Of a DNA stretch of 64,000 nt, positions 33,826 through 57,512 are shown piece after piece. Location: contig OZ024740.1 in NCBI GenBank assembly GCA_964016885.1, positions 199,392,001-199,456,000 on the forward strand, read 5' to 3'. The DNA is from Eledone cirrhosa (Eukaryota). The notes below the pieces were generated by a model. The model saw nothing but the letters and a program-made list of their open reading frames with translations. It was not told where the DNA came from and did not search any database. The translations under genes were made by a program, and so were the position numbers. Every line of letters starts with the position of its first letter. Positions within the stretch are counted from its first letter, which is position 1.

Positions 33826-34485
33826 AGATATATTACACAAAGAGAAGTGTGTTACACAGTGAGATGTGTGTAGAGAATTATTACAAGTGAGTTTTACCGT
33901 TACTGTATAGAGAACAATATCTACACGTTTAGCAATTAAATAGAAAAGAAGTCAGAATCAGATCTCTGAAATAGAGTTTTAAATTACCAACCTTATAACT
34001 ATAAGTTTGCTGATACGAATCTAATTCGTTTCCCCACAGAAAAGTGCAGTTTAACAGCCCACAGGTTCATCAGTCAGCAATTGTGGATTCTGTTCACGAC
34101 ACATCTAACCCCATGGATAGAGAGAAAGCTAATATACACGCTGCTCAAAGTAGGACGAAATCACGTGTTATTTGCATCAAATAACGGCTCTCATGGATTG
34201 GGGAACATGCTAGAGAGGGCAGCCCAACCATTCGAATTTATTAGCTCAACAATTTGGAGCTCGTTAAGTATACGAGGATATGAATTAAGAATATTCCGCA
34301 GTTCACAGTAATAATAATAATATTAGCTCAAAGAAGAATAGAGAATTTTCTTCTGAGCTCAAATAGAGATATATTACACAAAGAGAAGTGTATTACACAG
34401 TGAGATGTGTGTAAAGAATTATTACAAGTGAGTTTTACCGTTAGTGTATAGAGAACAATATCTACAGGTTTAGCAATTAAATAGA
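33826..34485 (-). mobile_element. Non-coding 541-bp unit with 119-bp direct terminal redundancy and one HHR
   Basis: 33826-33944 is repeated at 34367-34485, with an HHR between the repeats and a TA tract on the left. Confidence 0.75.
34007..34080 (-). ncRNA. Type I hammerhead ribozyme
   Basis: Reverse complement reads ttgctga-CTGATGA-acctg...tggg-GAAAC-gaattagattc-GTA-tcagcaa, with a 7-bp stem I and a 6-bp stem III. Confidence 0.85.
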
Positions 34486-34568
34486 GTTTCGACGGTTATT
34501 TCTGGAGTCCAGAAATAGCCGTTGAAACGGCTTGCGCTTTACCGTCGGAATTTTGAACATTTTCTTAT
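34486..34568. mobile_element. Family A fold-back fragment
   Basis: gtttcgacggttatttctgga-gtccagaaatagccgttGAAAC-ggcttgcgctttacc-GTC. Confidence 0.7.
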
Positions 34569-37149
34569 ATATATAGAGAGAGAGATATATAGATATATAG
34601 ATATATACGACATGTTCCTACACGTTCTCAATCTACAAATCTTAACTAATAAGTTATTGGTTTACCCAAGGATAAAGCAGTAAACAGTTGGTCGGTACCT
34701 CGCAGTCGGACCGTACCTGAATCTACTTAGTGGTGAAGCAAGTATCTTAATCAAACAGACAGGCGTGCATTGCATATCTGGATTAATAGAGACGTATAGG
34801 AATACATACATAATAAACATATAATTCTCGTCCGTCGCGGTTATTTTAAACGGTGATCGTCTTACAGCTTTTAAAATATCCGTGTACGAATGACAAATAT
34901 TAGTCTTTGAGATTATTTATATATCTTCAGTAATGTCTATTCACTCGTGACCGAGGCATGATAAGCTGTTAGGTTGGAAACAATGCATTGTAGATTCACC
35001 TCACTGAAGATGGATACAAATCATGAAATACTATCATTTGTCGTTCTTGTGTGGCTACTGGCGTAGCTGCTAAATTACAACAGCTGAAAATAGCTGAAAG
35101 TATATTGGAAGTATCACTAGAGCTGCGAGGAACATGCTGTGCGGCATAGAGCTACGTCCCTTTACATTATGAATGGAAATGCCGCCTTGGATTGCTTACC
35201 CTTTAATGCATAAGATCCGAGAAAATGGATACCGGTAACGCACTGTGTGTTTGGGGGTCGACTTTCCCCTCCCCTCAAATTGTTCAATTTGTGCCTAAAT
35301 CAGAAACGATTATTACACACACATACTGTATATACTTCCATATGTGACTTTATTATGAATTATACTGTGTTATTGCTATTGCTGATTAATCTTGTCGCTT
35401 AATGACCAGAAGCTGAGGCTTCCAGACTCTTATGTATTGTTTTAAGCATCTATCTGAAGGACTTGTATTATATAAATATGTTAAACACTTAAATCTCTAC
35501 TTAACTGCTCACTCTTTTGTAATTAAGGAACTCATCAAACATCTTCTGCTTGCAGCTAAATTAATATGCGTTCCGAATATTTCTAATAAGTTTTGATTAG
35601 TTTTCCAGCTGTTGGTAAGATAATCCATATCATCTCAGAGTACAAGTTATTAGAGAATTTGTAACTAATTTATACATTTTAAATTAAATATTTCATTTTC
35701 TATTTTTTCCTGTATTGCTTTTGTTGGTCATGAGGGTGGTGGTGGTAGTTGCAGAGGTGGTGATTCTTGTGATAAACTCAGAATTAGTTTAACTCTACAA
35801 CATTCTCTAAATTATTACTTGAAAATAATTACTTATATTGCCACAGGTTATCAGATGGATAATAGCTTTGACAATGCTGGAAGTGATAATATTTAATCGT
35901 CTTTTTTTTTTTATCCTTACATTTGTTAAGTAGATGCCGTCGGATGTGAAGCGAAGCAGTACTGAATTAAATCTTGAATTAAAATTGGATTTCTATGAAA
36001 ATATTTCAATTGATTGAGCATTTGATAAAGGAATTGAGATTTCAAGGCTGGTCACAAAAAACGTCGATTTCAAATCTCACTGGAGTTAAATTTTTCAATA
36101 CACTGCCTGAGCCCGTGAATCTTCTAGGGTTTAATGAGGATAGACACAGCCACCCCAAGTTTACAGTTAAATATGACATTTCAAAGGATTTATTTATAAG
36201 TGATATATATATACATATATACGTATGTACACGTACATACATATATTATACAGACGCACAGTAGTATGTATATATATATATACATGCACACATATATATA
36301 TGTACGTATGGATTCACCGAACATTTATTATAATGCTCGGTGTGTTTGTAAACAAACATGCCGTATTAAGCCGTAGTGTCTAGCAACCATCGTTGCTCGT
36401 TTGTTCAACACTGACAAAGGAACGCTGTACTAGTTTCAAGCTTATTAGCTATCGTCAGCAACGTATACCTTCCTGCCAGATTGTTGAACGTATATACTTA
36501 CCTTATGCATATTAACAACGTACTAAGAGTGGGAAATGAAATTTCGTTTCATTTTTTCCGTATATACATATATTTATATATAAATACACAAAAGCACACT
36601 CACACACACTGAGACTCGCACACACACACACGCACACGCACACACACACACAAACACACACACACACACACACCTATAAATATATATATATATATATACA
36701 TATGTATACACATATATTATAATCGTCCGGGATTTAAAGAAAATAATGTTGGCAGGTACACATTTACCACCTCCCAGTCGCTTCCCATAAAGACTTGTTA
36801 CAACATAGAATTCCGAACATTTTTTGGTTATGTCCTTGAGAAATACACTTCATTCCCATTGTTCCTGCACACTCAACATACACAAAATGAATACCAGCTA
36901 AAAAGAGGAGTCAATTCTGTGACGGACTATCTTCTACTCGCAGTCATTAAATGGTAACAGACCCGAGACAGGCTCCGGTCTGGTGAGTCTTTGGACCTAG
37001 TAATTATTAAGTATTGTAACATCTCTAGTCATGTATGCCAATGAAATATTGATAATTATTTACCCACCGAAAGATTTATATGTGCTCAATGGTAATGGTT
37101 ACAATAGCGTTCAGATTTCATCATTTCTAACGAAGTTCAGCAGCCTGCT

Positions 37150-37400
37150 CTGGTAAATTAACGAACAGGCTGCTCACACTTCTACAGAACATTCTCTGTT
37201 AAAATATTTCTCTGGAAGATTCAGGGTAACACACCGTGACACAAGGTTGGTCTTTTGAATTAGAAATAAAATCCATTCTTATTAGCTGAGCAAACTCAAG
37301 CATCCTGAAATAAAGTGTGTTCGACAAGTGCGCAACAGCCACCAAGGATCAAACATGTGTCCTCACTATCATGAGCCAGCACACTAACAGCTACTCACAG
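37150..37400 (-). mobile_element. Old degenerate SINE
   Basis: agctgagcaaactcaagcatcctgaaataaagtgtgttcgacaag resembles cephalopod tRNA-SINE bodies as I recall them. A similar relic lies at 34600-34770. Confidence 0.4.
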
Positions 37401-55300: not shown

Positions 55301-56072
55301 TGAAATATCAAAAATGAAACAAAATCTCCATGGAAGGAAATCATCTAAATAAAATATACGATAAACACTGCGCGATCTTTTATCGACAATAAGTCATTAT
55401 TTGGCTGTAGATTTATGTAAAATGAAATAATGTACTACATTTCAGAGACATTTGTGGCACTCAGGAGACTAACGTACGAAGCCGTATCTGTCATTTCTCT
55501 AGCAAAGCTAGTCCCACGTTAATTAATTCTGTTCTTCTCTTATTCTTATATTGTGCATGTGATGGAGAACGAACCGCACTTTTTTGCAGCAAGTTTGAAA
55601 GATTAACGTTAAAGTTATTTCTCTGATTCAATAAGAGAGCATTTCTGCCGTCGATCAAATATCAAAGTTTAGGCCTTCCATGAACATATTTAGTGATGTG
55701 ACAGCTACTATTTAAATTTTGTAGGTTGTTGTGGCTGTTTGCTACTGTATAACATGTTATATAAAGTGATATATGTGGGTGCCGTATATATATATATGTG
55801 TATATATATAAATATATATACAGGAGTAAGAAAGAGAGACTTAATTTCACAACAATACGCAAGCCATACTGCGAACACAGGTTCTTAAGTATGGTCTGGT
55901 ATTTGCTGTGATATTAAGTCTATAACTAACTCATCCTTTGCACTGACTGGTCTTCCAGCTTTCGATTCACCCTTCTGACTTTTCACTGCCCAATATATAT
56001 GTATATTTGTATATATATACACATATATATATAATGTAAATAATAATCAAAGAGTGTTTACTTTCAAACATT

Positions 56073-56126
56073 TAATAACTAACAATTGTTTCATTCTGGC
56101 ACAAGGCAGATTCTTCGGAGTTATTA
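56073..56126 (-). ncRNA. Minimal hammerhead ribozyme (CCGAAGA core)
   Basis: Reverse complement reads taataact-CCGAAGA-atctgccttgtgccagaat-GAAAC-aatt-GTT-agttatta, with an 8-bp stem I and palindromic ACAATTGT. Confidence 0.75.
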
Positions 56127-56800
56127 CAAAAGTTAAACACACATATAGAATCATACCTTTGCTTCAGGAACATTTGGAGGATACATATTATAAGAGGTTA
56201 TATAATACTATTTATATAGGGTAACAAAGCAAATGAGGAGCAAAACATGACAAATGGGAGCAGATAAAATGCGATAAAATAAAGTAAAATAAAAGAAAAT
56301 ACATATAGTTACAGATAAATGAAGTACAATAAAAATAATAAATAGTTGTGGTTAAAAATGATGCTGAAAAAGTTAACAATAGTAGACAGAGGAAACATGC
56401 ATTTCAAAATAAAGTTTAAGGATTTAAGCATTTAAAAAAAACAGTGAGATGAGAGATGTGCAATATTATAAGTTCAACCAAAATAATAACTTATTATTTT
56501 CAGTACCACTAGTATCACTGCGTAATAATTATTTAAATGCACCTTTAAACCTAAAAGTTTATAATATGTTTAACTACTATATTCACACATTCCCTCACAG
56601 ATCCCTACTTTGACTAATATTTTCTATAACTAATATTTTGTATAACTTTTATTATAACCACCACATCACATTTAGGGAGCTTATTAATACATTGTTTCGA
56701 CATCTTATTTCAGAAGCCTCTCTTCTCCTTACATTTGACTAATAATTTCATAACAACCATCGTCTCCCCCACTATATATATTAATATATACTATTCAATA

Positions 56801-57512
56801 CCGAATTGGACCCCACTAAAATGGCAAAACAATCTCCTGGTAAGTTTGTACATGTGTGATTTAGGTATGAGGTTGGTTTCTCATTTTATTTTATACTTTT
56901 AATTTTAATGTTTTACCAATGCCTCTATTAGATTATATTCTCTTCACGCTAGTGGTTTGAAATTCCTGTAAAGGAAAACACACTCTTCTGTGTCTTTCCC
57001 CTCTATATATTGTATTTTAAAGTGCACAGAAAAGCTCTTTCCTTTCAGCTCATTACAGGATTATACGCGAGTCCTTCACTCCATTATTTTACTTGATATT
57101 TGCTACTTGCGTTCTCTCTGCTGTCGAGCACCATCAATTGATTGTTATGGGCTGCAATCTCTAGCAGATTGTTCTGTTCATGCCACCAGTTACTGCCTCG
57201 CGCACGTATCTCCCTTATATTTACACGTGCTTCAGGTGGTTTACTATAGTTCTCCCTCTCTCAAGTAGTGCGGACAATATCGGTCTCTCCACATGCTGAT
57301 GACCCACAGGGCCGAATTCGAACCCACTAAAATGGCGAAACAATCTCCTGGTGAGTTTTACATGTGTGATTTATGTATGAGGTTGGCTTCTCTTTCTAAT
57401 CTATACTTTTAATTTTAATGTTTTTCCTAGGCCTCTATTAGATTATATTTTCTTTACGCTGGTGGTTTGAAATTCCTGTAAAGGAAAACACACTCTTCTG
57501 TGTTTTCCCCCT
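56801..57512 (+). mobile_element. Non-coding 511-bp unit with about 200 bp direct redundancy and an HHR
   Basis: 56801-57003 is repeated at 57312-57512 and ends at a TA tract. Confidence 0.75.
57290..57366 (+). ncRNA. Type I hammerhead ribozyme (slightly decayed)
   Basis: cacatg-CTGATGA-...ggc-GAAAC-aatctcctggtgagtt-TTA-catgtg. The upstream partial copy retains GTA-catgtg. Confidence 0.7.

Follow-up and report, generated by a model that had tools for sequence, protein, structure and literature searches.

What are the four partial tandem repeats in this stretch of Eledone cirrhosa DNA, and from what kind of RNA were they copied? In the window, the whole 64,000-nucleotide stretch that was analyzed, an initial annotation had recognized four non-coding units, each followed by a partial direct repeat, and had interpreted them as products of circular RNAs released by hammerhead ribozymes.

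Layout, hammerheads and kinship of the four loci

The direct-repeat coordinates bore out one unit plus a partial repeat at every locus, with periods of 541, ~520, 508 and 511 nt in loci 1, 2, 3 and 4, respectively. The repeats are 33826–33944/34367–34485 in locus 1 (119 nt, 96.6%), 41592–41894/42087–42411 in locus 2 (offset 495 upstream and ~517 downstream), 43229–43450/43737–43952 in locus 3 (88.7%) and 56801–57001/57312–57510 in locus 4 (91%). Several features had gone unnoticed, among them the minus-strand orientation of loci 1 and 3, an inverted 5' copy at each of loci 2 and 3, and the permuted hammerhead-like fold predicted for locus 3. The parts of the loci are as follows.

23769..24000, minus strand: diverged relative of the locus 3 3' region, ending in (TA)n; U16.1 at 23879, G12 at 23861, C3 at 23834
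33824..34485, minus strand: locus 1, whose non-coding 541-nt unit forms a 1.22-mer; (TA)n adjoins its 3' end
34007..34080, minus strand: locus 1 type I hammerhead; C3 at 34073, G12 at 34032, cut after 34014
41433..41550, minus strand: locus 2 inverted 5'-truncated copy, starting about 12 nt upstream of the cut
41592..42402, plus strand: locus 2, whose ~520-nt unit forms a ~1.6-mer; (TA)n adjoins its 3' end
42150..42227, plus strand: locus 2 type I hammerhead; C3 at 42156, G10.1-C11.1, cut after 42221, one stem I mismatch
43229..43952, minus strand: locus 3, a partial tandem of period 508, ending at (CA)n
43300..43401, minus strand: predicted non-circularly permuted five-helix hammerhead-like fold of locus 3, from descriptor and alignment
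43952..44056, plus strand: locus 3 inverted 5'-truncated copy, ending in (TA)n and starting 15 nt upstream of the predicted cut
56801..57512, plus strand: locus 4, whose 510/511-nt unit forms a 1.39-mer; (TA)n adjoins its 3' end, which lies 152 nt past the second cut
57290..57366, plus strand: locus 4 type I hammerhead; C3 at 57296, cut after 57360

The units also proved to lack a credible ORF, as had been claimed. The longest ATG ORFs of loci 1–4 encode 34, 52, 99 and 39 amino acids, the three longest stop-to-stop frames tested in the units had no match in Pfam, and no unit contains the reverse transcriptase (RT) plus GIY-YIG ORF that marks an autonomous Penelope-like element (PLE). They are non-coding head-to-tail units some hundreds of base pairs long, as retrozymes are, with genome-wide repetition examined for locus 1 alone. 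A TA or CA tract adjoins the 3' end of all four loci, in agreement with the TA-type tracts described earlier, and each shows microhomology to the internal copy; the background is 6% of non-microsatellite positions in the window lying as close to such a tract.

The type I hammerheads proposed for loci 1, 2 and 4 were confirmed, with no match among 1000 shuffles at each locus, and each lies in the repeat unit, as in retrozymes. A descriptor tuned on these three ribozymes gave 7 matches in the window versus 1 in 20 shuffled windows; its match at 22487 looks like chance by eye. A strict scan missed all three because it allowed no bulge or mismatch. Rfam at E-value thresholds returned no ribozyme from the window or from 41400–42400 and scored none of the three. 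Descriptor and fold searches found no type I hammerhead in locus 3. Exact-pattern scans of metagenome, viral and genome contig collections found nothing; six viral loci matching the 8-nt-insert pattern lacked stems I and III by eye, the permuted descriptor was silent on them, and they were treated as chance.

The best-preserved canonical type I hammerhead of the loci is that of locus 2, where the hammerhead of copy 1 carries G12A and lacks ~26 nt across the cut site. In locus 1, stem I has 7 bp and stem III 5+1 bp, and stem II of the window copy requires a 1-nt bulge; position 11.1 is C in most other copies of this locus, compatible with an 8-nt insert after A9. In locus 4, the G10.1-C11.1 pair requires a mini-hairpin insert of 8 nt after A9; this departure in stem II and the deletion of G16.2 had both been overlooked. 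Locus 4 starts inside stem II of its first hammerhead, which has lost its 5' half and carries G12A. Two intact ribozymes are kept at none of the four loci, and therefore no locus could set a monomer free on its own. An 'active' retrozyme is defined by complete hammerheads in two consecutive units (Li et al. 2026); these loci have no such pair, because locus 1 has one hammerhead and the first hammerheads of loci 2 and 4 are broken.

The four units had been regarded as unrelated, which was not borne out for all of them. The alignment of loci 1 and 4 (62% over 200 nt, E 0.002) outscored 434 of 434 window tiles, and that of loci 1 and 2 outscored 442 of 442. The similarity of loci 2 and 4 was marginal, being matched or exceeded by 5 of 434 tiles, and leave-one-out nhmmer with loci 1, 2 and 4 recovered the third member in none of three trials. 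Judged by sequence similarity, locus 1 is a distant relative of locus 4 and probably a relative of locus 2; locus 3 scored as unrelated to all three in the window-tile comparison. The common size, ~510–540 bases at all four loci, stood; it is partly common ancestry and lies inside the 51–972 bp reported for retrozyme families (bioRxiv 10.64898/2026.07.22.740005).

Template and mobilization of the units

Locus 1 is a member of a dispersed multi-copy family. The family-level data, which concern this locus alone, come from fragmented contigs of one sample and from RAD reads. Contig word depth across all bins of the unit was 1,101–55,245, versus about 5–13 for most listed single contigs, and listed contig pieces from other copies span 33944/45 and 34366/67. 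Other copies meet (TA)n at one shared 3' point, in at least six contigs at 33828 (X2); at the homologous 3' point 34369 (X1), at least three contigs do so, both counts being from one sample. Opposite-strand joints were seen in two other copies, and none of the contig pieces listed spans the cut site with 31 nt on either side. A joint in X2 that seemed to go back 541 nt is an ambiguous mapping between the two repeats and no evidence of a dimer or circle. RAD read-end piles at 33879, 33934, 33982, 34283, 34286, 34344, 34347 and 34420 lie at AATT sites and were dismissed as library cuts. A further pile, at 34008, falls outside the AATT-site explanation.

In the initial annotation, the template of each insert was a single ligated RNA circle of ~0.5 kb, copied by rolling reverse transcription. 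More-than-unit reverse transcription of an RNA circle had already been proposed (PMC4209133, PMC7229834), animal retrozymes are known to yield circRNA (PMC7229834), and the inserts cross the cut with a rebuilt hammerhead. Circular folding compared with 40 shuffles gave z values of -3.1, -2.6 and -1.8 for units 1, 2 and 4, which also speaks for a circle. The locus 1 repeats differ at four places, with two changes private to each copy, and have one derived letter in common; they were likely identical at insertion and fit a single template, circle included. In locus 4, divergence is uniform across the cut (4/49 versus 12/149, p=1.0). By contrast, repeat mismatches in locus 2 shift at the cut, from 3/115 upstream to 22/170 downstream (Fisher p=0.002), and the inverted copy sides with copy 1 (5/95 differences, versus 15/95 from copy 2); this locus looks chimeric at the cut and does not fit a single template. 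The inserts had been described as starting at different positions relative to the hammerhead. Their 3' ends are not scattered round the circle; the distance past the cut is 190 nt for locus 1, 181 nt for locus 2 and 152 nt for locus 4. Circularly permuted ends, predicted for other copies and sought for locus 1, did not appear: the 3' ends fall at the same point among the listed contigs. Moreover, PLE RT did not require hammerhead cleavage in vitro (PMC11167929), and the lack of any locus with two intact ribozymes also argues against a circle. Nor is the partial tandem diagnostic of a circular template: the layout described for PLE insertions (PMC8557442) combines partial tandems, inverted 5'-truncated copies and a 30–40 bp tail with targeting of (TA)n, and partial tandems alone are no proof of a circle. 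We consider it unlikely that each insert arose from one.

The loci themselves show this PLE layout of partial tandem, 5' truncation, inverted copy, tail and microsatellite target; in locus 3, the inverted copy stops 36–41 nt short of the main 3' end, a PLE-type tail. The window contains RT/GIY-YIG remnants whose linkers are of Hydra type and Neptune type and which have hammerhead ends of their own, and short PLE 3' fragments are scattered through it. Searching the units against the window's PLE peptides by tblastn gave nothing at E<=0.1, and a pLTR-homology comparison within the window found no sequence link between the units and these remnants. Retrozymes have been described as non-autonomous PLE derivatives (bioRxiv 10.64898/2026.07.22.740005), and the PLE-like layout supports the earlier proposal of non-autonomous, TA-targeted, hammerhead-bearing elements that likely use PLE machinery. 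We are fairly confident that all four loci consist of decayed repeat units without an ORF, arranged in the manner of PLE insertions and likely to be non-autonomous passengers (non-LTR retrozymes) copied by a PLE RT-endonuclease, with type I hammerheads in loci 1, 2 and 4 and a predicted permuted hammerhead of the Naiad kind in locus 3.

The layout also agrees with RT starting internally on unprocessed RNA, downstream of the hammerhead (PMC11167929). For the present units, a PLE protein would nick a TA or CA microsatellite, and the nicked strand would prime at a fixed internal site about 110–190 nt downstream of the ribozyme cut, at a short TA- or CA-like match on the RNA. The RT would proceed 5'-ward over one or two unit junctions and halt at a variable point, and a second priming could append an inverted 5'-truncated copy. 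The more-than-unit template would most likely be either a multimeric transcript left uncleaved or linear monomers that template jumps had joined, with two different unit variants needed at locus 2; for locus 1, a ligated circle would be possible and not required.

It is possible, if doubtful, that locus 3 (less likely loci 2 and 4) consists of stacked 5'-truncated 3'-UTR fragments of an autonomous PLE, 508 nt being a truncation length with no monomer behind it. Locus 3 is indeed unrelated to the other loci, circular folding of its unit does not surpass that of shuffles (z +1.3), its 3' fold is common to autonomous Naiads, and short PLE 3' fragments are abundant in the window; the confinement of family-level data to locus 1 also leaves room for truncation. 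However, other copies of locus 1 span the junction at which the 3' end runs on into the unit, loci 1, 2 and 4 align in one register from that junction onward, and the chance of a truncation length within 508–541 nt is 8–31% under simple ranges.

A predicted permuted hammerhead at locus 3 and in Naiad elements

For locus 3, a type I 'half-core' reading was dropped. Locus 3 and its 23.8-kb relative share a predicted pseudoknotted fold of five helices in which UH, GAAA and CUGAUGA stand in non-circular order and stem II is detached from CUGAUGA. In locus 3, the fold comprises a helix A strand (43401), hairpin X, a stem II strand (43374), U16.1 (43356), G12 (43338) and the core (43311) with C3U; the 3' end lies 126 nt past the predicted cut. 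A second copy, at 43807–43903, has lost the cut site through a 5-nt deletion. All three locus 3 copies of the fold are damaged, the 23.8-kb relative is the best-preserved copy in the window, and the window copies have no canonical pair next to G12 (no G10.1-C11.1).

The alignment of locus 3 with this relative, which comprises only two independent families, is gapless over 111 nt, with 87% of cells paired versus 23–49% for slid controls and four compensatory pairs in which both sides changed. A five-helix descriptor, built after the motif was seen, matched the window only at locus 3 and 23.8 kb; there were 2 matches in 100 shuffled windows and none in 5000 local shuffles at each site. A scan with a looser pattern of two stems did no better than chance (5 matches versus 0–7). 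An any-order descriptor was discarded as support, having given an equally weak spurious match in locus 4 and missed locus 2. A stem II partner 39–45 nt downstream of CUGAUGA was abandoned, like the 'half-core' reading, for the upstream one because the spacing of the latter is identical in both families.

Naiads were reported as lacking canonical hammerheads, and canonical and relaxed descriptors gave no stems at the Naiad 'HHR_core / HHR_half_core' (Craig et al. 2021, PMC8557442). By eye, a fold like that of locus 3, with different letters, lies at the 3' ends of Naiad PLE consensuses from a coral, two other cnidarians, an acanthocephalan and an octopus; nematode-block Naiad 3' ends read as type CSG with block C intact; and several Naiad ends show no such motif. 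Again by eye, CUGANGA, GAAA, UH and G10.1-C11.1 are kept across Naiads with wholly different helix letters. Locus 3 is likely of Naiad type. We conclude that the 3' ends of Naiads probably bear non-circularly permuted hammerheads. Those of nematodes would be of type CSG, and those of cnidarians, the acanthocephalan, the octopus and Eledone cirrhosa would have a new form with five helices, its CUGAUGA block freed from stem II and re-attached via two stacked helices; locus 3 would be a ~0.5-kb retrozyme on that ribozyme.

The fold might instead be a hammerhead-derived, conserved non-catalytic RNA element, such as an RT-binding or priming signal. Its stem II breaks the contiguity with CUGAnGA that is assumed as a rule for all known hammerheads (PMC10085705), which would suit such an element, as would the G10.1-C11.1 pair missing from the window copies and the Naiad ends without the motif. 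We regard this as quite unlikely, given that the catalytic letters persist while the helix letters change completely, and that the nematode-block records have the validated CSG order.

If our reading is true, permuted hammerheads of this sort would be new to animal genomes. Cleavage by the locus 3 fold would remove a main exception to the statement that PLEs carry hammerheads, undermine the Naiad-based argument for a dispensable or parasitic ribozyme, widen the range of non-circular RNA permutations to include animal transposons of very high abundance and break the assumption of an unsplittable CUGAnGA block.

Comparison with known systems

The loci likely match known non-LTR retrozymes, a known class that thereby gains members. 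Like those of animals (PMC7229834; bioRxiv 10.64898/2026.07.22.740005), they are non-coding, low-GC head-to-tail units with one type I hammerhead each in loci 1, 2 and 4, co-occur with PLEs and fall within the family size range. Unlike them, they are dispersed 1.2–1.6-mers in microsatellites rather than arrays, fall outside the 'active' definition, and exceed the 170–400 nt invertebrate circles tested.

With EN+ PLEs (Hydra, Neptune, Naiad, Poseidon; PMC8557442, PMC11167929), the loci share the partial tandem, 5' truncation, inverted 5' copy, 36–41 nt tail (locus 3), (TA)n targeting and a 3' end shortly downstream of the ribozyme, whereas the units have no ORF and measure ~0.5 kb versus 3–4 kb. 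In vitro, priming by the anole PLE took place in the absence of homology (Frangieh et al. 2024, PMC11167929); the present loci show short target microhomology.

The locus 3 fold has the S-G-C block order, pseudoknotted stems I and III and short stem I-stem II linker of types SGC/CSG (Eckert et al. 2023, PMC10085705), and the nematode-block Naiad ends have the CSG order already validated there. In locus 3 and several Naiads, however, no stem II strand lies within 1–2 nt of CUGAnGA; the 5' strand of stem II stands at the front of the motif, tied to A9 by a helix and a hairpin and not covalently. With this partner 5' of the motif, the locus 3 fold was therefore not filed as type SGC. The predicted arrangement would have an order that we did not find in print, and passages of Forgia et al. 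2023 show no hammerhead with an extra helix. Types SGC/CSG are metatranscriptome RNAs beside hairpin ribozymes, whereas the setting here is an animal retrotransposon. As in the Naiad 'HHR_core / HHR_half_core' of Craig et al. [quoted passage not shown]

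Partial tandem units at four loci

The four direct repeats of about 0.5 kb claimed in the initial annotation were all present, with periods of 541, about 520, 508 and 511 at loci 1–4, respectively; at locus 2 the figure combines an offset of 495 with a deletion of ~26 nt in copy 1.

Partial tandems, with cuts of hammerhead ribozymes (HHRs)
33824..34485, minus strand: locus 1; HHR cut after 34014 (minus)
41592..42402, plus strand: locus 2; HHR cut after 42221; inverted 5′ copy at 41433..41550 (minus)
43229..43952, minus strand: locus 3; inverted 5′ copy at 43952..44056 (plus)
56801..57512, plus strand: locus 4; HHR cut after 57360

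As had been claimed, none of the four units has a credible ORF, and no similarity was found between them and the peptides of Penelope-like elements (PLEs) in the window. The ribozyme-strand 3′ end of each locus enters (TA)n or (CA)n, bearing out the reported adjacency to TA/TG tracts, and a short matching stretch is present in the internal copy where each 3′ end meets the microsatellite. The type I HHRs at loci 1, 2 and 4 were beyond chance: a descriptor tuned on these same HHRs matched 0/1000 shuffles per locus and gave 7 matches in the window versus 1 in 20 shuffled windows; with Rfam, the three hammerheads were not scored. Loci 2 and 3 carry an inverted, 5′-truncated copy against their 5′ end, which at locus 3 ends 36–41 nt before the main 3′ end is reached. 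PLE insertions have been described as combining a partial tandem, an inverted copy, a tail of 30–40 bp and a (TA)n target (PMC8557442). The inverted copies start (41550 and 43952; n = 2) about 12–15 nt upstream of the predicted ribozyme cut. Using hammerhead position numbering, G12 was lost by a CpG-type change in the first-copy HHRs of both locus 2 (41697) and locus 4 (56826), which suggests methylation-driven decay.

The units had been regarded as unrelated, which held for locus 3 but not for the others. Loci 1 and 4 share 62% identity across 200 nt (E 0.002), and in ribozyme register their score exceeded 434/434 window tiles; that of loci 1 and 2 exceeded 442/442. Both signals came mostly from the part upstream of the ribozyme. 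The similarity of loci 2 and 4 was marginal, being matched by 5/434 tiles. A leave-one-out profile over loci 1, 2 and 4 recovered the third member in 0/3 trials; their kinship is therefore distant.

The locus 1 family and the template of the repeats

We analyzed locus 1 alone as a family, using two contig sets of one sample and two RAD runs; AATT words in the locus were presumed to be restriction sites. All bins of the unit were covered, at a contig word depth of 1,101–55,245, compared with about 5–13 for most single contigs listed, which shows that locus 1 is a dispersed family, word depth being no measure of copy number. Head-to-tail order characterizes the family, since both 33944/45 and 34366/67 are spanned by fragments from other copies. 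Among the loose ends listed (262 further rows lie beyond them), (TA)n ends inside the unit fell at 33828 (6 contigs), the 3′ end of the window copy itself, and at its homologue 34369 (3 contigs). Opposite-strand joints occur in two further copies. Ribozyme variants in the 40 of 122 rows listed affected N7, loop III and stem II, and no other core position. In locus 4, G10.1–C11.1 requires an 8-nt insert after A9, able to close a 2-bp mini-hairpin; an insert shaped in the same way occurs in locus 1, and most of its family copies have C at 11.1. The alternative reading is a mismatch at 10.1–11.1, and our literature search found no published description of such an insert. Upstream of the locus 1 HHR, 34163–34177 contains what we take to be octamer-like and E-box-like words, a possible internal promoter; the E-box-like word is common to loci 1 and 4, and the octamer-like word is absent from locus 4. 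A further genomic copy, with 6 differences over 104 nt, is joined in inversion precisely where locus 1 has its 5′ end (34485), hinting at a preferred RT stop. The adjoining 34486–34564 is a short palindromic repeat that also occurs at 9248–9438, 22632–22832 and 52097–52301. It is of very high copy (its contig word depth exceeds 300,000), and other copies of it are linked to (TA)n.

The initial annotation proposed that the units derive from circular RNA, a model already published as a hypothesis (PMC4209133, PMC7229834). At locus 1, each repeat has two differences of its own, four in all, and both have one derived letter in common; this fits one template read 1.22 times, whether that was a circle, a multimer of uniform units or a self-jump. 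Divergence at locus 4 is even across the cut (4/49 versus 12/149). At locus 2, mismatches number 3/115 upstream and 22/170 downstream of the cut (p = 0.002); beyond the inverted copy the count is 9/78 (p = 0.015). Of 95 positions compared in the inverted copy, 5 are unlike copy 1 and 15 unlike copy 2. Reading a single molecule 1.6 times should leave divergence even, so locus 2 probably represents two unit variants joined at the cut, although later gene conversion could also have produced the unevenness. The locus 2 deletion spans the first cut site, but is only suggestive because the inverted copy retains that junction intact. From the cut to the 3′ end, loci 1, 2 and 4 measure 190, 181 and 152 nt, in line with an anole PLE that is primed internally downstream of its HHR, with no need for cleavage (PMC11167929). 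Animal retrozymes are described as non-autonomous PLE derivatives with 51–972 bp units (Li et al. preprint, bioRxiv 10.64898/2026.07.22.740005). Given these descriptions, and as two intact ribozymes occur in none of the four loci, loci 1, 2 and 4 are decayed members of this known kind. The proposed finding is real but largely known already; its circular template is unproven and partly contradicted.

PLE remnants in the window

The window (GC 33%; about 9% perfect dinucleotide microsatellite) abounds in decayed PLEs.

PLE remnants with RT or GIY-YIG
2370–4569: RT or GIY-YIG
25904–26786: RT or GIY-YIG
29268–29620: RT or GIY-YIG
31844–33186: RT or GIY-YIG
60837–62917: RT/GIY-YIG, long, Neptune-type

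By eye, their linkers matched the motifs described for the Hydra clade (CxCX5C) and for Neptune (CX2-5CxxC) in PMC8557442. A Hydra-type GIY-YIG (minus) 3′ remnant at 24539–27700 has long inverted repeats on both sides, and both arm ends are hammerhead-like (cut after 24595, with 56 nt left to the 3′ end); next to locus 2, 40941–41175 holds a copy of this end that is 210 nt long and has a fold-back. Another Hydra-type remnant with inverted arms (27739–30671) bears type I HHRs at 27830(−) and 30482(+), with 43 and about 141 nt between the cut and the arm ends; its end recurs as short palindromic copies at 23053–23155 and 42747–43130. A related type I HHR fragment at 19085–19155 (−; cut after 19093) has TA tracts on either side, and a palindromic piece at 60362–60503, with a hammerhead-like core at 60442, lies upstream of the Neptune-type remnant. 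The ends of 19949–21304 are duplicated in tandem around an ORF fragment (20246–20827) without a Pfam match, which we take to resemble the restriction-like endonuclease region of R4/Dong-type non-LTR elements.

A permuted hammerhead-like fold at locus 3 and in Naiads

The surprise is a permuted, split-core hammerhead-like fold common to locus 3 and Naiads, a PLE clade. From sequence comparison, it is well supported as a conserved structure; as a ribozyme, it is only a candidate. No type I hammerhead was found at locus 3. A permissive search yielded a relative at 23769..24000 (minus strand; 66% across 103 nt, E 5.5e-8), likewise with a (TA)n end. Their alignment is gapless over 111 nt, and they share five helices with identical spacings of 25, 20, 18 and 27 nt. 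From 5′ to 3′, the fold consists of a helix A strand, hairpin X, strands of stems II and III, UH, a stem I strand, a short linker, a stem II strand, GAAA, a stem III strand, a spacer, a stem I strand, CUGAUGA, one base and a helix A strand. Across three sequences of two families, 87% of cells pair, compared with 23–49% in slid controls, and four pairs are changed on both sides (three in X, one in stem I; 8/500 shuffles). A pairing-only descriptor, written after the motif had been seen, matched only these two places in the window, with 2 matches in 100 shuffled windows and 0/5000 local shuffles for each place; with a looser two-stem scan, the 5 matches did not exceed chance (0–7). The 3′ end is 126 nt away from the predicted cut in locus 3 and about 108 nt in the relative. 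No locus 3 copy is undamaged: one has C3U, another has lost the cut site, and the third lacks its 5′ half and has A9G. Beside G12, a canonical pair is missing from the window copies.

Naiad consensus sequences (supplementary File S5 of PMC8557442, in part) were read by eye. Thirteen consecutive records were examined over their last ~330–400 nt, with upstream parts of some. All five helices occurred in locus 3 order in six (Naiad-3_Chem, Naiad_Amil, Naiad_Aacu, Naiad_Anas, Naiad-2_Movir and Naiad_Plae). The three coral records (Naiad_Amil, Naiad_Aacu and Naiad_Anas) are near-identical, one with two mismatches, so the six represent four independent families. The fold was partly visible in Naiad_Bfor and absent from the portion examined of the other six. 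It was also present in the two octopus records before the headers Naiad_Ovul and Naiad_Omin, with the 27-nt GAAA-to-CUGAUGA spacing of locus 3, and in one unnamed record near part 19; by eye, it was not seen in Naiad_Esco, Naiad_Adux, Naiad-1_Skow or Naiad-2_Skow. Between families the helix letters are entirely different, and CUGANGA, GAAA, UH and G10.1–C11.1 are retained. A spider-block record near part 17 has S-G-C order (the UH-, GAAA- and CUGAnGA-bearing pieces, 5′ to 3′), with an 8-bp stem I, a 10-bp stem III and an unclear stem II.

Craig et al. (PMC8557442) describe Naiads as without canonical HHRs, with only cores and half-cores flagged. The mostly open literature searched, with preprints in their main text, yielded no description of permuted hammerheads for Naiads or for any other retrotransposon. 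Six records of a nematode block (three from Nippostrongylus) have a clean CSG-type order and an intact block C; this type was previously represented by two natural sequences, both cleaving (Eckert et al., PMC10085705). The S-G-C order of locus 3 is among the non-circular permutations of that study, which assumes an insert of at most 1–2 nt between CUGAnGA and its stems. Unlike in that assumption, stem II of locus 3 is tied to A9 via helices A and X, which, if stacked end to end, would keep A9 and position 10.1 close.
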